A stretch of DNA of 64,000 bases from Candidatus Thorarchaeota archaeon. Its GTDB lineage: Archaea; Asgardarchaeota; Thorarchaeia; Thorarchaeales; Thorarchaeaceae. Below are positions 594 to 10,424 of the stretch, piece after piece (the stretch's first letter is position 1; each line of letters opens with the position of its first letter). The notes below the pieces were generated by a model, which was not told where the DNA came from, did no database searches, and saw only the letters and a list, made by a program, of their open reading frames with translations. The DNA is taken from NCBI GenBank assembly GCA_048884965.1, contig JBHLQH010000004.1, positions 96,001-160,000 of the forward strand, read 5' to 3'. Made by a program: the position numbers and the translations under genes.

Positions 594-1115
594 TTGGTAG
601 TCTTCGCAGTATACGATCCGATCAAACATGAACGAGATTTTATTCAACTCAATATCGAATACATAGGATGGATTGCAGACCAAGTACTCAAACGCTATGG
701 AATTGATTTTCTGAAATCTACGGGAATGTCTGTAGAAAAGTACGTTCGGACAAATTACGAGAATTTCATATCTGTGCCAGTAGAAGAAGGGAGACTATTG
801 ATTCTTGAAGATTCTGGAAAAGTAATAGGAATGGGTGCCCTTACCAAACATGATATGGACGAAGGCGAGATCAAACGAATGTATGTCAAACCTGAGTATA
901 GGGGAAAGGGATTTGGAAAGAAGCTTTTGATGAAACTTATTGATATTGCTAAAGATCTTGAGTATACTGCTCTACGATTGAATACGGGGGGATTCATGGA
1001 TACTGCACAGTATGTTTACACTAGTGTCGGATTCAGGAAAATACCTGAATATACAGAGTCCGAAGTGCCAATTCCTTTGAACCATCAATGGTTTTTCATG
1101 GAGTTGGAATCGTAG
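594..1115 (+). CDS. GNAT family N-acetyltransferase
   Basis: GEIKRMYVKPEYRGKGFGKKLL acetyl-CoA binding motif A; C-terminal A..YTSVGF motif; start uncertain (TTG). Confidence 0.9.
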   Translation: MVVFAVYDPIKHERDFIQLNIEYIGWIADQVLKRYGIDFLKSTGMSVEKYVRTNYENFISVPVEEGRLLILEDSGKVIGMGALTKHDMDEGEIKRMYVKPEYRGKGFGKKLLMKLIDIAKDLEYTALRLNTGGFMDTAQYVYTSVGFRKIPEYTESEVPIPLNHQWFFMELES

Positions 1116-1124
1116 GAACAGAGT

Positions 1125-1916
1125 TCATGTTCGTATGACTATTATTTGCCCCTGTCTACTTACACCAAGTTGCAGGTTTCCTTTGTAGGCGTTGACATAC
1201 GCATTCTCAAGTATGATGTCTTCACCCTCATTAACCTGTCTGATAGTATCATTCCACAGAACCAGTTTCACTGATCCTGTTTCATCAGTGAATGTCACAT
1301 TTGCAACTTGGAGCGGTTTGCCGTCTTTTGAAATTACGTCTCTTGTTTCAGATACTTCTTCAATTCTACCTTTGATTTTTAGTCCTTTCATCCCATCTTG
1401 AAGGTCTTTTATCAAAACATATGATGGCTCATAGGAGTCATCGGTTATCTTCACGTAATATCGCAAATCGAAAACCGGGACCCATCGTAGAATGCCTTCC
1501 TGTCTGAATCCTATCTTCTCATAGAATCCCTTTGTTCTAACATTCCATTCAGGTGTATCAAGAGTCCACTTCTTTACCTTAGGGTAGTTGCTCTCTATTA
1601 GTCGAAATGTTCCTGTCCCAATTCCTTTACGATGAAATTCAGGATCAATGAATACACCATAGATGTATGCATGCTCTTCTGATACCTTGTAGACTCGTGT
1701 GCCTCCAACGATCTGCCCATTGAAAAGAAATTTCCAATAATCTGTTCTCTCGCTTTTGGTATCTCGTCTATGTGCTTCAACTGAGTCATAGCCATCTGGA
1801 CCTCCGGGACCAGGTGCTCCGACATCCACATCAGAATCAAAAGCTCGTTTCGAGATATTAGCAAGAATCTCAGCATCTTGCGGTTTTGCAAGTTCTATCG
1901 AAATCAGTCCTGTCAA
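1125..1916 (-). CDS. GNAT acetyltransferase fused to a C-terminal SSB/RPA-type OB-fold
   Basis: N-terminal FIDPEFHRKGIG...FYEKIGF (GNAT); C-terminal IKDLQDGM..IKGRI..DETGSVKLVLWN..ENAYVNAYKGNLQL (archaeal SSB/RPA OB fold); TTG start 3 nt after the uvrA stop, with GGAGGGG SD upstream. Confidence 0.88.
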   Translation of the reverse strand: MTGLISIELAKPQDAEILANISKRAFDSDVDVGAPGPGGPDGYDSVEAHRRDTKSERTDYWKFLFNGQIVGGTRVYKVSEEHAYIYGVFIDPEFHRKGIGTGTFRLIESNYPKVKKWTLDTPEWNVRTKGFYEKIGFRQEGILRWVPVFDLRYYVKITDDSYEPSYVLIKDLQDGMKGLKIKGRIEEVSETRDVISKDGKPLQVANVTFTDETGSVKLVLWNDTIRQVNEGEDIILENAYVNAYKGNLQLGVSRQGQIIVIRT

Positions 1917-1919
1917 TCC

Positions 1920-4808
1920 TTACCCCTCCTGAATGACATCACTTAGGAACCTGCCAGTGAATGATTTGTTGTCTTTGGCTACATCTTCTGGCGTTCCAGT
2001 TGCTATTACCTCTCCACCCTCATCGCCACCTGATGGTCCCAAATCTATGACATAATCCGCACTCTTTATGACGTCCATATGATGCTCAATGACTAGTATT
2101 GTATTCCCTTGTTCTACAAGTCGATTCAAGCAATCTAAGAGCTTTTGAATATCAGCGAGATGGAGACCTGTTGTTGGTTCGTCGAAAATGTATAATGTAT
2201 CACTCGATGCCTTCAATTTTCCAAGCTCTTTTGAAAGTTTGATACGTTGAGATTCGCCTCCACTCAACTGATTCGATGGCTGCCCAAGCTTGAGATATCC
2301 AAGACCTAACTCATCCATGGTCTTAAGCTTGTGATGAATCAGATTTACATCTTCAAAGAAGGTCATTGCCTCTTCTACAGTCATGTCGAGGACCTGTGCA
2401 ATGTTCTTTCCTTTGTACTGAATCTCAAGGATTTCTTTTGTATATCGATCACCTTTGCATGCGGGACAGATGCTCTCGATATCAGGCATAAATTGCAATT
2501 GAGTAGTGACTATTCCCTCACCTTTGCATTCAGGACATCTACCACCACTATTCTGATTGAAGCTGAAATCAGCCATCTCGTAGTGATTATCTTTTGCCTC
2601 AGGGAGGTCAGCAAATAGTGAACGTATCTTATCAAAGAAACCAACGTAGGTTGCCGGATTTGACCTAGAAGATCGCCCTATGTTCGTCTGATCGATATTC
2701 CTCACATCTCGAAGATTCTCAATTCCTTCAATTCTATCATGTTTACCCGGGATGATTCGCCTATCTCTGAAGACAGAGTGCAGTTTCTTGTAGAGAATCT
2801 CATTGATCAAGCTACTCTTTCCAGATCCAGATACACCAGTAATGCACACGAAGAGACCGAGAGGAATCTCTACGTCGACACCTTTCAGGTTGTTCTCTTG
2901 TGCGTTGAAAATCCTTAATGCATGCCCATTGGACTGTCGACGGTGCTCTGGTGTCTCAATCCTTTTCATTCCTCTAAGATACTGCCCAGTAACAGAGTCC
3001 TCATTTTTCTGAATATCTGCAATAAGCCCTTGAGCGATAACTCTCCCTCCATGAACTCCTGGACCGGGACCCATCTCAATTATGTAATCTGCGGCCTTCA
3101 TCGTTTCAACGTCATGCTCGACAACTATTACCGTGTTACCGACGTCACGTAACTTTTTGAGAGTATCAATTACTTTAGTTCCGTCTCGAGGATGAAGTCC
3201 GATTGAAGGTTCATCAAGAACAACAAGCATTCCCATAAGCTCCGATCCAATCTGGGTGCTTAGTCTAGTTCTCTGCAGCTCACCACCAGAGATAGTGTCA
3301 GCCCGACGATTCAGACTAAGGTAGTAGAGACCAATGTCTAGCATCAGGTCAATCCGTTTTTTCAATTCATCAAGAATAGGACCTGCGATATGCTCCTTCT
3401 CTGCAGGAGTCTGAATATTATCAAGGAATGACCGTAGTTCCTGCAAGGGCAGGATAGATAATTCATGGATAGTCCTGTCGCCAACCTTCACAAGCATCCG
3501 TTGAGGAAGAAGCTTTGTACCTTTGCAATCAGGACACAGACTCTCGACCATGCGTTTCTCAACCCAATTGTACCCAGGGTCATTCTGCTTGCGTTCCTTA
3601 CACAAACGACGATACCATGCATCCAATCGGGGCACAATCCCTCTGAAAGAGAACATCTTCCCAAAGTTTTCGTGGTCCCTAAGCTCATCAGGAGGACGTA
3701 GCATCTCAAACTTCTCACCACCTGTTCCATAGAACAGTTTGTGCTTTACATCCTCAGATAGTTCCTTGTAAGGTGTATCTAATGAGAAGCCAAAGTGCTC
3801 CCCCATGCTATAGGCCATACAATAATGCCAGTTAATGATGCGTTTGTAAGTGCTGGGATCTATATTCCATGAACCTCTATCAATAGCTCCTTCTCGTAGA
3901 CTCTTATCGGGATTTGCCACCATAAGGATAGGATTTGCTGTCATATGAGTGCCTAACCCCCCACAAGTTCTGCAAGAACTATCACCTTCATTCGAGGAGA
4001 AGTACCATGGGAGAAATTCGCCAGCTAGAATATGATGTTCAGAGCATGACAAAGATGAGTAGAATTCCGAGGATTTCGGAGCATTCTCCGGATTTGTTAT
4101 ATTCAGTCTGAGAAATCCTTCTCCAATCCTCAGACACTCGATGATAGAATTCACGATTTGCTTTGTCTGATCTCCATTTATTGTGAACTTGTCCAAGATT
4201 CCTTCAATACGATACTCCTCTTCCTCGTCAAGCTCTATATTATCAGAGGTGCTTCTTAGTTCACCGTCGAGCCTGATATTTCTGCAACCATGATTTCGTA
4301 TCTCATCGATGAGATACTCATAGTTCTCACCATATACCTTGAAGAACGGAGCTAGAATCTCGATGGTAGTTCCTTGTGGCAATGATTGAATATGTTCAGC
4401 GATTTGATGTGGAGTCTTCGCGGGAATCTGACTTTTACAATATGGACAATGAGGTATACCTACTGTTGAGAATAGCAAGCGTAAGTATGTCTGTATCTCT
4501 GTTAGGGTTCCCACGGTGGATCTTGGATTTCTCACCCCACGAGCTTGAGAGATCGAAAGAACAGGAGAGAGACCTTTTACCGAGTCCACTGCTGGTTTCT
4601 TGATCAATGGTATGCGAGACCTTGCGTAGGCAGAGAGCGACTCCATGAACCTGCGTTGACCTTCTCCATACAGAACATCGAACGCAAGTGATGATTTTCC
4701 ACTCCCTGACACACCTGTAACCACGGTTAGTTTGTCACGAGGAATCTCGACATCTATATTCTGCAGATTATTTTCGCGAGCTCCTTTGATACGCACAGTT
4801 TTGCTCAT
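1920..4808 (-). CDS. uvrA: UvrA-family ABC ATPase (excinuclease ABC subunit A-like)
   Basis: GARENNL start, two GVSGSGKSS Walker A motifs, ISGGE/LSGGE signatures, [23 protein letters not shown], Zn-module CxxC pairs; 962 aa. Confidence 0.97.
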
Positions 4809-5749
4809 AGCATCTCACTCTCCATGCATAGGTATCCTGCCTCATAAACCTCGAATCGACTCCTACTTGTAAGCTTCAACGGATACACCATCTTTTGGAG
4901 TAGTCCCAACCTTGCAAGAAACTCGCAGGATGAAATCAGTGTGAAGGTATCATTGCGATTAAGCTTCTTTCTAAAATGCTTGTCAATCTGCGATATGCCA
5001 CAATGACCACCTTGTTCAAGGATATAAGCAGCAATAGGCTCGAAGAGAATGTCAGCGTATTTCTCTAAATAACTCTGGCAGAGATTATAGCCTGTTTCGC
5101 AAGCTTCCAGGGTCACACCTTCTTCAAGCAGAGAGAAATAGCTCTTCCCGAAAAGATCAGGATTGTATTTCCTTGCTTGTAGAGTGACCTCTCGAGATGG
5201 AACATCACCATGTGACAGAACTTCCAGATGAGCTACTTGAAGTATCAATCCGTTAAGCCATCTGAATGCCAACATGGCATCTTTCTGATGTACGATACTC
5301 TTGCGAACTTTACTCAAGTAACCAAGCGCGTTGTCAGCATAAATCATCATCCCAAGTGATTTGTCTCTGTCACCAATCCGAGAGGGATTCTCATAATATT
5401 CTGTTATCGTATCATCATTAGAGAATAGCAATTTACCAGTATATATGATATGATGGAGAACAGAGCCTTGTAAAGGAACATCCATCCAATCTCGAAAATT
5501 CTTCCTTGAATGGACATCAATTTGAATCAGGATATCACCATCCTTCAGCCAATGTTGCTGATATGGAAGAGATTCATCCTTAGTTATGATTAGCATGTCA
5601 ATATCGGATTCAGACCACACATCCCCACGCACCAGACTCCCATAGACAATTGCCGCAAGGATATTGGAATCTCTTTGTAGTTGTTCAACAAAGGAATCAA
5701 GGGCTGAGGTATACTCAGCAATTATATCGTTTTGTCTGTCCACACTCAT
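4805..5749 (-). CDS. Pol-beta-superfamily nucleotidyltransferase with helical and C-terminal winged-helix-like domains (YgxA-like)
   Basis: [17 protein letters not shown] (GS..DxD) plus a third Asp in IQIDV; stop overlaps the uvrA start (ATGA). Confidence 0.8.
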
Positions 5750-5753
5750 TAAA

Positions 5754-6635
5754 TCACTTCTCCTTTATAGGGTGATATAAATCGAGCATGAAATCACCAT
5801 CACTTCCGTCCGGTGATAGTGCATGTTCAAGGCAAGGTCCTTTAGCCATCATGTATTTGCTTGATCTAACCCATTCATCCAGCTTCTTCCAGCTTTCAAG
5901 ATACCCATTTTCCTTGAAGAATTCAGATTCAAGCTCCTCTGTCAAGTTACACGTAATGACAGCAAAGTTCCCACCCTTGAACTCTTTATACTCCATACCC
6001 TCCAAGAGCTCATATTCTCTGTCAACTACCATCCAGAACTCGTATCCATACTCCGAACTACCAGGTTCAGGATTCGGATTGTTGAAACCATAGACAGGGT
6101 GTTTCCGAGGTTTGTTAAGCAAACCCAGAGGTTCAGCCCACTCACGCATCTTCTGCCATGCATCGTTCTCTGGGGAACGACTTATTACTCGAACACTTAC
6201 AACTCGATGAGGATTGAGCTTCACTATGCGAACATCTGATTCTTCGATATCATCTGTTTTCTTTGAATGAGCCTTCAGTATTAGCTCTGCGCGTTTCGCG
6301 GATTCCGCATTCCTACGCCTCACGGATTTTGCATAGGTCTCAACGATTGCAGATATGAAGAGAACTCCATCATCGGTTATTTCATACAGACCGCGTTTCG
6401 GATTAGAAATCATCTCAGCTGATAATAGCTTTGAAAGGTGATGAGCAAGGGCTGTTTTGCTTAAACGAACAACATGAAGAAGATCATCAAATTCCTTGGG
6501 ACCTTGAAGAAGTGAGGAAAGCATCTCGAGCCGGGACCGATTGGAGATAGAGGAGAGGAGATATTCTATATCATTAGTGAAATCATCAAGTATTGATGAC
6601 CATTGATGTCTTTTCACCTTGCTCATCTTAACCAC
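5754..6635 (-). CDS. ArsR-like winged-HTH regulator fused to a GyrI-like small-molecule-binding domain
   Basis: SNRSRLEML..LSKTALAHHLSKL..GLYEIT (wHTH); VRIVKL..PENDAW..YGFNNPNP..YGYEFW..CLEH (GyrI-like). Confidence 0.85.
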   Translation of the reverse strand: MVKMSKVKRHQWSSILDDFTNDIEYLLSSISNRSRLEMLSSLLQGPKEFDDLLHVVRLSKTALAHHLSKLLSAEMISNPKRGLYEITDDGVLFISAIVETYAKSVRRRNAESAKRAELILKAHSKKTDDIEESDVRIVKLNPHRVVSVRVISRSPENDAWQKMREWAEPLGLLNKPRKHPVYGFNNPNPEPGSSEYGYEFWMVVDREYELLEGMEYKEFKGGNFAVITCNLTEELESEFFKENGYLESWKKLDEWVRSSKYMMAKGPCLEHALSPDGSDGDFMLDLYHPIKEK

Positions 6636-6646
6636 GATACAGAGAT

Positions 6647-6702
6647 TAAGTACATTTATTATTAAACATTTCTTTGAACGTAAGTACTATTTTTACTGAA
6701 CA
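6647..6702. promoter_or_regulatory. Imperfect 22-bp direct repeat, putative operator/promoter of the wHTH-GyrI/uvrA operon
   Basis: taagtacatttattattaaaca (6647-6668) vs taagtactatttttactgaaca (6681-6702), 17/22 identical, AT-rich, directly upstream of the regulator. Confidence 0.4.
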
Positions 6703-6764
6703 ATTTCATCTTCATCGAATGCCTGAGAGTTTCTCGAAAACTGTACACTTATCCGATGGAAACT

Positions 6765-7358
6765 CTAGATGTCAAATTCTAGCTTGTTTTCTTCCCACCA
6801 TTGCCGCCATTCTTTCATAATCCGTTCTCGTCCGGACAGTGTAATGCCATCGACAAAAGAAGGCCCAGGATTCCCAAGCAGGCGTCGTAGCATCACAATT
6901 TGCCCCATGTGACCCATATAATGATAGGCCATCCTGTACAGGGTTTCTAACAATGATTCACTAGGATTACCTGCAAAAGCTTGGTAGAATTCGGAGGGCT
7001 CTAATCCACGAAGATACTCCTTGTTACAATCACTCATATTGAGATAAGTATCAAGTAAATTACGGAATGATAAAGGAGGATGGATGCGTGAAATCTCATC
7101 CTTGGTTGTTCCATAGCGAAAGTATTCACACAACTCTTCAGAATAGAACCGGGTATTTTGACATGTCAAGTTCACAACCCAATGGTAATGAACAGCGCAA
7201 TGACCAAAAATCCATCCTATAGAATTCAGCATTGGTGAAGCTGATGCATATATTTGATCTGATGAAAGACCCATCAAAGAGTGAAGTAGGTTGCATTCTG
7301 CAATCTCAACTGAAGCTATGCCTATTTGTGCGACATTGAGTTCCATGTAAACACCCAC
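6765..7358 (-). CDS. DinB/YfiT-superfamily protein
   Basis: NSIGWIFGHC...YHYMGHMGQIVMLRRLLG His-triad pattern. Confidence 0.85.
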   Translation of the reverse strand: MGVYMELNVAQIGIASVEIAECNLLHSLMGLSSDQIYASASPMLNSIGWIFGHCAVHYHWVVNLTCQNTRFYSEELCEYFRYGTTKDEISRIHPPLSFRNLLDTYLNMSDCNKEYLRGLEPSEFYQAFAGNPSESLLETLYRMAYHYMGHMGQIVMLRRLLGNPGPSFVDGITLSGRERIMKEWRQWWEENKLEFDI

Positions 7359-7520: not shown

Positions 7521-10424
7521 ATGAAGCGCACGCTTATTCTTATCATTTTAGTAATATCCACATTCATGGTCTTCAATCCAACCCCACAGAATCAATCACC
7601 TTTTGTTGAACTCGGAAGGGAGATTTCTATTATTGAAGACTTCAATGATAGTGGAGAGAAGCAGGATGTGACTGTCCGCTTTGATAGAGAGCTAACTCTA
7701 TCAGAGATAGAATACTATGAGAGTAGAGGTATAGACTTCGGAGAAAAGATTCAGAACATCGGTTCAATATACATTGTGAAAGCATCACAACTTGCCCTAG
7801 ACAATCTTGGGAAGGATACTAGGTTTGAGAGCACAGAACCACTGAAACAACCAAGGTATCAAATGCCAAGAGATGTTTCGATAACTGATTGCTATGCGGA
7901 TATCGCTCAACAAATGCAGGACTACTATGGATGCAACCTTACAGGAGAAGGGATTCTAGTTGCAGACTTAGACACTGGCGTTCAGTGGAGACACCCGGAT
8001 TTCTTCTTTGCCGATGGACCGAGTATACACTACTTTGAAACTTCAGGGACTCCACCGAATATGTGGATTTTCAATAATGGAACAGATGGAGTAGATCTGA
8101 ACAACAATTTCGCAATCGAAAGCAACGAGAAGCTCTATGCAATTGATGTCAATGAAAATGCCGCAATAGATGCTGATGTCGATTGGATATGGTTAGATAA
8201 TGGAACCACAGTAGGGGCTATTGATGATGGTGATGCATTCTTTGCAGTAAACGATACAGACTCCGATAATGTAGTAGAAGGTGTTGATTACTTAGTCAGA
8301 TTAAAGACACCTAAGACGAAGTATCTCGTTCACAAGGTGTCTGGATTCATTCAAGCTTGGGAGAGAGGAGTCAATTTAACTTCAAGTACATTCTATGATA
8401 CGGATGGACATGGTACTGGTGTAGCAGGAATTCTAAATGGAGGGCAATTAGGGTATAGAAAATATGTCGGAGTTGCACCTGACGCAGAGCTCATGGCCAT
8501 CAATATCTTTGGTAATGATGGCCTTACAGTAGAGGAAGGGCTTGTCTATGCAAGAGATCATGGAGCAGATGTGATACTCATAGAGGTAGGCTCTTGGACG
8601 TATGAGTTCTTAGATGGATCCAGTAATGTCGAATTAATGATTGATACACTAACAGCAAGTGGCATACCGGTTATTGTGCCGGCTGGAAACCTTAGAGGAG
8701 CAAATCGACACGCAGCAAGAACTGGAACAGCCAATACCATACAATCAACGGACTTCCGAATCCCAACATCACTTGGAGCGACAGAAGTATATCTCACAGT
8801 TCTTTGTGACAAATTGGTGAATAATGCTCAAGTGAATATCACCGAGCCAACTTCCTCAGGCAGCATTGTACACCAGCTCAGTTTCGGAATCGGTTACTAT
8901 CAATGGACCACTGCATCATATGGCGTTAATGTCACAATAGATGCGTTCATTGCGAATTCAACGAGAGCTGGTTGGTACATGATTGCTGTTGATATTAGAG
9001 GAACTATAAAGGACACATCCTACTGGTCTATTGATATTGAGAATACTCAGAATGCTCAATATCACTTCTACATCTCTGATGACGCAAGTGCATGGAGTGG
9101 AGGAGCAGAATGGTATGGACCACATGGAGTCACGAATCAAAATACGATTACATGGCCATCAACAGCGGATACAGCAATATCTGTTGCATCATATCACACT
9201 AGATCAATATGGGCAACAGCAGGTTCTTTGGCGTCGTTCTCATCAGAAGGTCCCAGAGTTGATGGAAATAGTAAGATGTCAATTGCTGCGCCTGGAGGAT
9301 GGGATGTCATCTCAGCATGGTCAAGTGACTCTGCATGGGCAACATGGTATGATAATTACGGAGGTCTCGCGTTAGATTCCGTATTTGGAGGATATAGACT
9401 CTTTAGCGGAACTTCAGCATCTGGACCTCATGTTGCTGGGGCAGCAGCACTTATCCTCCAGCTCAATGCAGATTGTGGTTCAATTGTTAAGGACATTATC
9501 GAATCCACAGCATATAATGACGGGTTTACAGGAGTGATACCTCCGCCACCCGGGGTAGCGAATATCGGTTGGGGGTATGGTAAGCTTAATGTTTCAAATG
9601 CAATAGAAGAAACGATGAAGCTCCCCGTCATCTGGGAAGTACAGGAAAATCCCTTGCCACCAGAATACAATGAAACATTCGTTGTAACAGTCAATGTGTC
9701 AAATGCTGATTTTGTGGTCTTCGATTGGACTTCCAACGCTTGGTCATCAATGATTCATTCAAACATGACTCTATCTAGTGGAGTGTATACAGCTTCAATA
9801 CCTAGTCATGCGTACTCAACTGCTATAGAATACAAAGTGATACCGATCAACTCCTCTGCTATTGGAGGACCAGTATATGGTGGAGATTACACTGTTGTAG
9901 ACACTATTGCTCCTGTAATAGGTTCATACTGGCATAACGCTACAGGGACAGTTGTTGATCCAACATTCATAGACATCGCCATCCAAGCAACGGAACCCGT
10001 AAACGCATCAGGCATATGGGCAGTGGATATAGAGTTCACACTGGATAACTGGGTATCTATAAACTACATCACAATGACCTACAATGGAACCCATTGGATT
10101 GGTATGATAACCCCCGCACCAGCACCATTCACTGTCCAGTTCAGAGTCGCGGTATGGGATAATGCGATGAACATAGCAAGGACATCCAGCTTCTCGTACA
10201 CTGTGACACCGGCAACGACTACGACAACAACTACAACCACTACAACCACAACGACCACAACAACAACTACAACAGATACAGGTACTACTTCGGATACTAT
10301 TACTGGACCGACAACGACTTTCAACTTGCCAGAATGGATTCAAGAAAACATGACCTTGGTGTTAGTTGCTGGAACAATCCTGTTGCTGCTGATCATCATA
10401 GTAGCGTGTAGGCGACGGAACTAG
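7521..10424 (+). CDS. Secreted, membrane-anchored S8 (subtilisin-like) serine peptidase with Ig-like modules and a Thr-rich stalk
   Basis: Signal peptide; DLDTG, HGTGVAG, GTSASGPHVAG catalytic motifs; C-terminal TM helix followed by RRRN. Confidence 0.93.
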   Translation: MKRTLILIILVISTFMVFNPTPQNQSPFVELGREISIIEDFNDSGEKQDVTVRFDRELTLSEIEYYESRGIDFGEKIQNIGSIYIVKASQLALDNLGKDTRFESTEPLKQPRYQMPRDVSITDCYADIAQQMQDYYGCNLTGEGILVADLDTGVQWRHPDFFFADGPSIHYFETSGTPPNMWIFNNGTDGVDLNNNFAIESNEKLYAIDVNENAAIDADVDWIWLDNGTTVGAIDDGDAFFAVNDTDSDNVVEGVDYLVRLKTPKTKYLVHKVSGFIQAWERGVNLTSSTFYDTDGHGTGVAGILNGGQLGYRKYVGVAPDAELMAINIFGNDGLTVEEGLVYARDHGADVILIEVGSWTYEFLDGSSNVELMIDTLTASGIPVIVPAGNLRGANRHAARTGTANTIQSTDFRIPTSLGATEVYLTVLCDKLVNNAQVNITEPTSSGSIVHQLSFGIGYYQWTTASYGVNVTIDAFIANSTRAGWYMIAVDIRGTIKDTSYWSIDIENTQNAQYHFYISDDASAWSGGAEWYGPHGVTNQNTITWPSTADTAISVASYHTRSIWATAGSLASFSSEGPRVDGNSKMSIAAPGGWDVISAWSSDSAWATWYDNYGGLALDSVFGGYRLFSGTSASGPHVAGAAALILQLNADCGSIVKDIIESTAYNDGFTGVIPPPPGVANIGWGYGKLNVSNAIEETMKLPVIWEVQENPLPPEYNETFVVTVNVSNADFVVFDWTSNAWSSMIHSNMTLSSGVYTASIPSHAYSTAIEYKVIPINSSAIGGPVYGGDYTVVDTIAPVIGSYWHNATGTVVDPTFIDIAIQATEPVNASGIWAVDIEFTLDNWVSINYITMTYNGTHWIGMITPAPAPFTVQFRVAVWDNAMNIARTSSFSYTVTPATTTTTTTTTTTTTTTTTTTTDTGTTSDTITGPTTTFNLPEWIQENMTLVLVAGTILLLLIIIVACRRRN
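10201..10320 (+). repeat. ACN-codon low-complexity repeat encoding a poly-Thr linker
   Basis: More than 20 consecutive Thr codons with mixed third positions. Confidence 0.9.

Follow-up and report, generated by a model that had tools for sequence, protein, structure and literature searches.

UvrA is among the best-studied proteins of DNA repair. The paralogues known so far, the class II proteins of drug resistance, are truncated, and for them an ATP-dependent, UvrB-independent role in protection from DNA-binding natural products has been proposed. To our knowledge, no nucleotidyltransferase (NTase) partner has been described for class II UvrA proteins. Here, we consider a full-length UvrA that is encoded directly behind an NTase gene in a 64,000-nucleotide stretch of Candidatus Thorarchaeota archaeon, an Asgard archaeon (assembly GCA_048884965.1, contig JBHLQH010000004.1, positions 96,001 to 160,000; G000:C4:96001-160000 in our numbering of genomes and contigs). 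The whole stretch is referred to below as the window; it belongs to a metagenome-assembled genome (MAG) of 4.09 Mb that is 95.7% complete with 7.2% contamination.

Canonical class I UvrA (E. coli; PDB 9gxk, 2r6f, 3zqj and 3pih) has the same length and domain order as the window protein, and both contain two ABC modules, the UvrB-binding-domain fold, an insertion domain and three zinc modules. Class I also provides the best PDB sequence match of the window UvrA, with 969 bits as opposed to 556 bits for D. radiodurans UvrA2 (2vf7) and 461 bits for Ecm16 (7sh1). The window UvrA differs from class I in that it falls into a separate clade, lacks the equivalents of R216 and E222, carries a CCCH zinc module 1 and is linked to an NTase rather than to uvrB. 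Class II proteins (DrrC, Ecm16 and D. radiodurans UvrA2) are likewise found as an extra UvrA beside the repair copy, but they lack the UvrB-binding domain that the window protein keeps, and their genes sit in biosynthetic clusters, whereas the NTase-UvrA loci lie outside such clusters. The window UvrA is thus not a class II protein of the DrrC/Ecm16 type, on which the original prediction for this locus had drawn.

The other proteins of the operon have described relatives as well. The NTase shares its two-domain fold and a G-S...DxD motif with ANT(4')/KNTase enzymes (1kny, 6un8) and YgxA-like proteins (3c18, PF22339) and, like KNTase, is a probable dimer with composite active sites; it differs from both groups in sequence (16-19% identity), in an extra C-terminal winged helix and in its pairing with UvrA. 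GyrI-like regulators of the Rob and BmrR type fuse a ligand domain to a DNA-binding domain, as does the operon regulator, although the DNA-binding module of the latter is an ArsR-type winged helix and not of the AraC or MerR type. Cyclopropane hydrolases of the YtkR7 type also share the GyrI-like/Cass2 domain, a likeness at the level of sequence. Finally, the PADLOC model mad3 of the MADS defence system matches residues 638-952 of the window UvrA (window 1920-2894; E 5.6e-84), which shows that one known defence system holds a UvrA-derived ATPase; the match is confined to the C-terminal ABC half, and none of the remaining operon products is recognised by a mad model.

The NTase-UvrA pair

The NTase gene (4805-5749, minus strand; 314 amino acids) and uvrA (1920-4808, minus strand; 962 amino acids) overlap in an ATGA, so that the stop codon of the former and the start codon of the latter coincide in part (gctATGAgc, read in the sequence). 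They form the middle of a row of five minus-strand open reading frames (ORFs) with intergenic distances of 129, 4, -4 and 3 nt, counted from a DinB-family gene through the regulator, the NTase and uvrA to a gene for a GNAT-OB fusion protein, which starts with TTG 3 nt past the uvrA stop. ORF coordinates and sequence thus confirm the predicted operon of four co-oriented genes with spacings of 4, -4 (ATGA) and 3 nt, and its domains had been described accurately. A conserved unit of five genes is not borne out, and what is conserved is the NTase-UvrA pair.

This distribution emerges from a pattern scan based on an NTase alignment, with one genome per GTDB species, which returned 434 relatives, or ~0.2% of the species genomes scanned. 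All pairing counts refer to the best 80 of these 434 NTase loci, and in 76 of the 80 a full-length UvrA is encoded directly downstream on the same strand. One paired locus, L045 from the unpublished genome G045, is included among the 76 and as a single leaf of the FastTree phylogeny described below, and no claim depends on it. The paired loci are spread over about ten bacterial and three archaeal phyla; the bacteria include Bacillota (e.g. Paenibacillus), Chloroflexota, Armatimonadota, Latescibacterota, Gemmatimonadota, Acidobacteriota and Abditibacteriota, the archaea Thor-, Heimdall- and Bathyarchaeia. A neighbourhood search, as the original prediction had suggested, therefore finds the NTase-UvrA pair conserved far beyond related genomes, in bacteria and archaea alike. 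Within Asgard archaea the distribution is patchy, with the NTase present in 33 of 301 genomes. Close relatives of the NTase in our protein collection number a dozen, mostly from Thorarchaeota; the order regulator-NTase-UvrA recurs on other Thorarchaeota contigs with different flanks, and an NTase with 33% identity on a bacterial contig is again followed by UvrA. The reverse order, UvrA and then a double NTase, occurs on contig C3 of the window's genome (G000:C3) and in four other Thorarchaeota genomes.

The pair also appears to be lost as a whole. Two genomes of the window's genus, G003 and G006, keep the regulator, GNAT-OB and a convergent GNAT gene, while NTase and UvrA are gone and a short remnant ORF is left. 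In G006, this remnant (L035:6367-6735, G006:C228) encodes 122 amino acids that join the N-terminus of the NTase (75% identity) to the C-terminus of UvrA (69%); the G003 remnant (L036:4421-4615, G003:C241) matches the NTase only, at 78% in the genome search and 85% by tblastn. Judged by these matches, the remnants are the scar of an en-bloc deletion, and since both genes were removed together, the pair behaves as one unit.

No third gene is conserved beside the pair: among 103 upstream genes at 56 loci, the commonest family accounts for six. The recurrent families there are GyrI-like (six), AraC (five) and glyoxalase/bleomycin-resistance proteins (four), and GNAT, MFS, MerR, TetR, APH and aminoglycoside NAT genes recur in otherwise variable surroundings. 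Known defence genes do not recur among the neighbours of the 56 loci. A LexA (Cheo) box was found upstream of only one of 28 Bacillota loci, and the module is therefore not generally part of the SOS regulon. The longer NTase relatives comprise double NTases only and no NTase-UvrA fusion, which is weak evidence. Literature on UvrA with nucleotidyltransferases, UvrA paralogues, YgxA, and GyrI-like proteins with UvrA yielded no published description of the pair, in keeping with the earlier statement that no system of this composition is known. Gene neighbourhoods thus identify a conserved core of two genes, NTase and UvrA, as a widespread and undescribed module.

A full-length UvrA outside the canonical clade

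The window UvrA, which was assigned from Pfam and NCBIfam models, trees and alignments, scores 1118 bits with TIGR00630 (cut-off 729.8) and 1138 bits with NF001503 (cut-off 1147). The UvrB-interaction domain (PF17760, residues 132-236, E 1.7e-18) and the insertion domain are both present. Both ATPase sites are intact, with the Walker A motif GVSGSGKS at residues 32 and 658 and the signatures ISGGE and LSGGE, and so are zinc modules 2 and 3. Zinc module 1 is of the CCCH type, its second pair being C255 and H258; the histidine is found in 78 of 79 NTase-linked UvrAs, as against a cysteine in 8 of 8 canonical ones, and E161 and K216 are further residues specific to the clade.

Identity to bacterial NTase-linked UvrAs amounts to 50-57%, compared with 42-45% to canonical UvrAs, including two from contig C14 of the same genome. 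In a FastTree phylogeny of 90 sequences, all NTase-linked UvrAs, those next to double NTases included, form one clade with a Shimodaira-Hasegawa (SH) support of 0.997; in an IQ-TREE analysis of 39 sequences that included E. coli UvrA, they lie on one side of a branch with an SH approximate likelihood-ratio test (SH-aLRT) value of 100. The canonical UvrAs of the same genomes fall outside the clade in both trees, so that the phylogenetic check envisaged at the outset places the window protein apart from canonical UvrA. The archaeal members are nested within the Bacillota-rich part of the clade, a position that suggests acquisition of the archaeal NTase-linked UvrAs from bacteria.

The surface that in canonical UvrA binds partners is changed in this clade. 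In E. coli UvrA, an R216A E222A mutant has been used to disrupt the UvrB/Mfd surface (PMC3025350). The aligned residues of the window UvrA are Q217 and I223. Arginine is found in the R216 column of none of the 79 NTase-linked UvrAs and of all eight canonical ones, and the E222 glutamate is kept in 64 of the 79 but not in the window's subgroup. Conservation of the interaction domain as a whole is 0.58 within the clade and 0.57 in canonical UvrA.

Excision-repair genes proper are found elsewhere in the genome. Neither uvrB nor uvrC occurs in the 64-kb window, as had been noted from the sequence; the genome's copies are on contig C14 (36678-51424), where uvrB, uvrA and a second uvrA follow each other in a row, with uvrC 5 kb beyond. 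A uvrA beside uvrBC, for which the original prediction had proposed to check the genome, is hence present as a tandem pair. A fourth UvrA is encoded on C3, with the fused double NTase directly after it. The window UvrA is accordingly an extra paralogue, neither the sole UvrA of the genome nor a neighbour of uvrB or uvrC. The original prediction would have been undermined by a UvrA that was the only one of its genome, that grouped with the canonical proteins and whose neighbours were not conserved in related genomes; because other uvrAs are present, the grouping is non-canonical and the NTase neighbour is widely conserved, these three sequence-level objections fall away.

Several double or tandem UvrAs were seen along the way. 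Tandem uvrA-uvrA arrangements also occur in one Latescibacterota and one Bathyarchaeia genome, possibly as a single open frame of 1894-1969 amino acids. Directly to the left of the window, a minus-strand row (L014:4774-11992, equal to G000:C4:88774-95992) is made up of genes for a double UvrA of 1631 amino acids, a squalene-cyclase-repeat protein (345 amino acids) and an AlkZ-like DNA glycosylase (450 amino acids); genes for a Ras-family GTPase, a PadR regulator and a copper P-type ATPase come next. In G011, a double UvrA with 56% identity is encoded ~6 kb away from the UvrA-double-NTase pair, and proteins of this kind with 1620-1639 amino acids are also encoded in G044 (Bathyarchaeia), G156 and G226.

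The nucleotidyltransferase

The assignment of the NTase rests on Pfam, an AlphaFold2 (AF2) model and Foldseek searches. Pfam recognises a Pol-beta NTase domain (E 2e-12), and the YgxA-like family PF22339 scores 17.6 bits, under its cut-off of 27. The AF2 model, computed from an alignment of 50 sequences, has a predicted local distance difference test (pLDDT) value of 93 and predicts three parts: a Pol-beta NTase domain, a helical substrate domain and, at the C-terminus (residues ~237-307), a basic winged helix. The best Foldseek match is the YgxA-like protein 3c18 (E 1e-14 over 301 columns), followed by the ANT(4')/kanamycin nucleotidyltransferases 6un8 and 1kny with template modelling (TM) scores of 0.57-0.73 and E-values of 7e-10 to 3e-8; HalB, LinB, ANT(6) and AAD(9) are further matches. 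Across the 50 sequences G37, S38, D49, D51, R82, D129, K147, K150, R186 and E187 are invariant, a set that comprises the catalytic G-S and DxD residues and charged residues of the helical domain. The view of the NTase as a drug-modifying fold is thus upheld by the ANT(4')/KNTase fold and the intact catalytic residues. Sequence similarity to the resistance enzymes is low, with 20 bits for the NCBIfam ANT(9) model (cut-off 340) and E-values of 0.1 to 1 for ANTs in the PDB. The NTase scores 32.6 bits with NF047752 of the MntA/HepT type VII toxin-antitoxin systems (cut-off 60), and the operon contains no HEPN gene.

Double NTases of 620-730 amino acids are common in bacterial genomes. In the fused double NTases of Thorarchaeota (L029:1-1728 of G000:C3, and L031-L034), the N-terminal half carries D49N and D51N and the C-terminal half is intact, and this one-sided loss fits a dimer with composite active sites of the kind known from KNTase. 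A complex prediction for the NTase with UvrA residues 1-640 gave weak support, with an interaction prediction score from aligned errors (ipSAE) of 0.48, compared with 0.00 for the best control. Among solved complexes, 58 of 80 reach the mark applied to this score, and among mismatched pairs 2 of 110 do so; passes at 0.60 or below include only seven of those 80 complexes and both of the mismatches. At least 48% of contacts are shared between the prediction runs, and the pLDDT of the partner is 80 or more. With adjacency and translational coupling taken as a prior, the predicted complex lends modest support to a physical contact between NTase and UvrA.

Regulator and promoter

The operon begins with a regulator gene (5754-6635, minus strand; 293 amino acids) that was annotated with Pfam and NCBIfam. 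Its product combines an ArsR-type winged helix (residues ~20-105; HTH_5, E 5.7e-7, 29.8 bits, cut-off 22) with a GyrI-like/Cass2 ligand-binding domain (residues ~134-291; PF06445, E 1.8e-15, 58 bits, cut-off 26; Cass2, E 6e-15), and its sole PDB sequence match is the ArsR-type protein NolR. Orthologues are encoded directly upstream of the NTase in Thorarchaeota (L037, L039 and L042-L044), Heimdallarchaeia (L059) and Bathyarchaeia (L100), and the GyrI-like sensor predicted for the head of the operon accordingly holds in three archaeal lineages. The ArsR-GyrI protein is found upstream of the pair in archaeal loci only; in Oceanirhabdus, a GyrI-only gene takes this place.

The predicted promoter/operator region (6636-6764, minus strand) was delineated by reading the sequence, searching for repeats and comparing orthologous promoters. 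The 129-nt region can be aligned with four orthologous Thorarchaeota promoters, which all contain the perfect palindrome TAGTAC-N5-GTACTA; this block is kept even where the regulators are only 45% identical. An A/T-rich TATA-like stretch follows downstream of it, and close to the start codon there is one more TAGTAC(T/C). Conservation of the palindrome fits auto-regulation by a dimeric winged-helix protein and makes it a candidate operator. In the window, an A/T-rich TATA-like stretch is found ~27-37 nt ahead of the GTG start codon of the regulator, along with two (A)GTACT-containing direct repeats of 25 nt (6681-6705 and 6647-6671) that are 34 nt apart. The window copy of the palindrome (6681-6705) lacks 8 bp and with them one half-site, which could entail altered or lost repression or be an assembly error.

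GNAT-OB and flanking genes

The last gene of the operon (1125-1916, minus strand; 263 amino acids, TTG start), annotated with Pfam and NCBIfam, encodes a GNAT domain (E 1e-11; PF00583, 45 bits) fused to an OB fold of the crenarchaeal single-stranded DNA-binding protein (SSB) type (Ssb-like OB, E 1.7e-10). The acetyl-CoA loop HRKGIG is present, and W, Y and Y occupy the positions of the stacking residues W56, W75 and F79 of SsoSSB. The fusion belongs to a general Asgard family that has members in 85 of 301 genomes, and the host genome encodes a second copy on C26. Only copies with at least 61% identity adjoin UvrA or a GyrI regulator. The regulator-NTase-UvrA locus L037 includes GNAT-OB, and L039 and L040 are without it. 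A general role as UvrA partner was considered and rejected, as thirteen loci at 50-55% identity have neither UvrA nor GyrI within 1.5 kb; the neighbours of the remaining copies vary (RNase III, AsnC, Sir2 and others). For UvrA, NTase and GNAT-OB together, the combination named in the neighbourhood search proposed earlier, these gene contexts hence show no general three-gene association. The original prediction is correct for GNAT-OB in this operon and its closest copies, and not in treating a general Asgard family as a conserved partner; on the available gene contexts, GNAT-OB is a lineage-specific recruit of Thorarchaeota to the operon.

A Sir2-family deacetylase gene adjoins one GNAT-OB paralogue (L157:2372-3154, G301:C120). 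From this neighbour, the general family may be protein lysine acetyltransferases acting on proteins bound to single-stranded DNA (ssDNA). In a genome of another Asgard family (G148:C13:233176-235177), an NTase match and a GNAT-OB match, the latter with one in-frame TAG, are spaced ~370 nt apart on one strand and could represent a second, independent GNAT-OB/NTase link.

Upstream of the promoter, the DinB_2/MST-like gene (6765-7358, minus strand; 197 amino acids; Pfam DinB_2, E 1e-7) is a co-oriented neighbour outside the conserved unit. It had been listed with the predicted operon as its upstream gene. The orthologous and NTase loci examined contain no DinB match, and the upstream genes differ among L037, L039 and L042; DinB was therefore rejected as a component in spite of its position 129 nt upstream. 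Divergent from it is a Peptidase_S8 subtilase gene (7521-10424, plus strand; 967 amino acids), and an S8 peptidase gene is also found upstream of the orthologous operon in L037. At the other end, a second, plain GNAT acetyltransferase gene (594-1115, plus strand; Pfam Acetyltransf_1, E 6e-17) is convergent with the operon and occupies the same position, with 66-67% identity, in G002, G003 and G006.

Possible functions of the module

We favour the view that the module is inducible and protects against a xenobiotic that binds or damages DNA, perhaps independently of UvrB, and put the probability of this reading at roughly 0.45. On this view, the window locus is the Thorarchaeota version of a horizontally spread NTase-UvrA module to which a GyrI-type sensor and GNAT-OB have been added. 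Binding of a xenobiotic by the GyrI-like domain would de-repress the operon. A UvrA dimer would scan the DNA and recognise the bound or adducted genotoxin, using ATP as proposed for Ecm16 and DrrC and largely dispensing with UvrB; an NTase dimer, probably docked on UvrA, would then nucleotidylate the freed compound or the lesion and thus prevent rebinding. GNAT-OB would be an acetyltransferase held on ssDNA exposed at such sites, with the compound or a DNA-bound protein as its target. The points counted in favour of a xenobiotic role are the ligand-sensor regulators, the ANT-like fold, a minority of resistome-like neighbours, the patchy, transferred distribution, the loss of the arginine that contacts UvrB and the finding that 27 of 28 Bacillota loci have no LexA box. 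A module that senses a toxin, strips it from DNA and inactivates it had been put forward from the start; its operon, sensor fold, ANT fold and extra UvrA stand, while sensing, stripping and adenylylation or acetylation are still putative.

Other observations weigh against protection from a xenobiotic without UvrB. E222 is retained by most clade members, so the clade may still bind UvrB, and with its fold kept and its constraint equal to that in canonical UvrA, the interaction domain probably still binds some partner. At least 28 of the 33 NTase-bearing Asgard genomes also encode uvrB. The NTase carries a winged helix, a part missing from drug-modifying ANTs that would be in line with a nucleic acid as substrate; few of the upstream genes are of the xenobiotic type (the six GyrI-like genes of 103), and none of the loci is surrounded by an evident biosynthetic cluster. 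The substrates considered for NTase and UvrA are all putative. As a test of dependence, co-occurrence with uvrB proved uninformative, since uvrB is found in 234 of 301 Asgard genomes regardless of the NTase. No uvrB was seen in five NTase-bearing Asgard genomes, all incomplete MAGs; two of them from Thorarchaeota, G156 and G226 (93% complete), yielded uvrC along with the NTase-linked UvrA and a double UvrA, but neither uvrB nor a canonical uvrA. Such genomes are suggestive of UvrB independence, with MAG gaps as a possible cause. In the genus of G156 and G226, uvrB is present in 14 of 25 genomes, compared with the 234 of 301 in the phylum sample.

Much of the same evidence can be arranged into a specialised branch of excision repair, in which the paralogous UvrA senses a class of lesions poorly handled by the canonical sensor, the NTase is guided by its winged helix to act on DNA, and incision is left to UvrB/UvrC or another nuclease. 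The NTase would, for example, adenylylate a DNA end, an abasic site or an adducted site or add nucleotides to it, a notion that shares the low standing of the branch itself. Such a branch would explain why UvrA retains the fold of the UvrB-binding domain together with its insertion domain and every DNA-binding module, why the NTase ends in a basic winged helix and why the OB fold of GNAT-OB is of the ssDNA type with its aromatic residues kept; HalB, a structural relative of the NTase, makes oligodeoxyadenylate, genes for PolX, the AlkZ-like glycosylase and a double UvrA are close to some loci, and most host genomes carry uvrB. We nonetheless consider it unlikely, given that R216 is absent from 79 of 79 clade members, that Bacillota loci with a LexA box are so rare, that the closest functional relatives of the NTase act on small molecules and that ligand-sensor regulators indicate a chemical inducer. 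It is also conceivable that the NTase is a regulator or adaptor which nucleotidylates UvrA, or replaces UvrB/Mfd on the altered interaction domain, and thereby switches the ATPase. Strict pairing with translational coupling, the weakly supported predicted contact and an interaction domain that is altered yet constrained, with its clade residues E161, K216 and H258, are in line with this idea, as are the MntA-type NTases, weak sequence relatives that AMPylate a partner protein. The helical substrate domain and the invariant charged residues, however, resemble the small-molecule pocket of ANTs, and the xenobiotic-sensor regulators would be left without a reason, which makes an adaptor improbable.

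Defence against phages or plasmids, with a UvrA-like ATPase that senses foreign or modified DNA and an NTase that produces a nucleotide-based signal or alters the invader, has the weakest evidence of the xenobiotic, repair and defence roles. The patchy, horizontally transferred distribution would suit it, TnpB and a Peptidase_M78/DUF4411 pair are encoded next to one locus, and weak matches of the NTase include candidate defence NTases and HalB. The mad3 match to the C-terminal half of UvrA reflects the shared ABC half rather than the system, the module comes without a paired effector gene, known defence genes do not recur at the 56 loci and the regulators are small-molecule sensors, so that a defence role seems highly improbable to us. 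Least credible of all is an ordinary second uvrA among unrelated neighbours that were packed tightly by chance. The protein does exceed the TIGR00630 cut-off and contain all UvrA domains, but such an accident is contradicted by the NTase neighbour at 76 of the 80 best loci, which come from about a dozen phyla, by a separate clade that has signature residues of its own and by the joint deletion of NTase and UvrA in G003 and G006.

Conclusions

Protection against a xenobiotic, the reading that we prefer, can be taken one step further. The module might be a self-contained, UvrB-independent machine of genome protection, in which the UvrB-docking domain has been re-purposed to hold the NTase and the genotoxin is handed over and disarmed on the spot; the unit would move between bacteria and archaea, and in Asgard archaea it would be wired to a GyrI-type sensor and an ssDNA-tethered acetyltransferase. 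This more ambitious proposal is a doubtful one.

The NTase-linked proteins represent a third type of UvrA, a full-length clade with a changed partner surface that is coupled to an enzyme resembling antibiotic NTases, and the pair spans soil and sediment bacteria as well as three archaeal phyla. The Paenibacillus versions make the module directly testable in culturable bacteria. If it is a true resistance or repair device, it would constitute a new kind of link between recognising a lesion or drug on DNA and inactivating it chemically, and it could serve as a marker for environmental genotoxins. For the Asgard archaea, the locus would be an example of bacterial genes that have been acquired and placed under new regulation.

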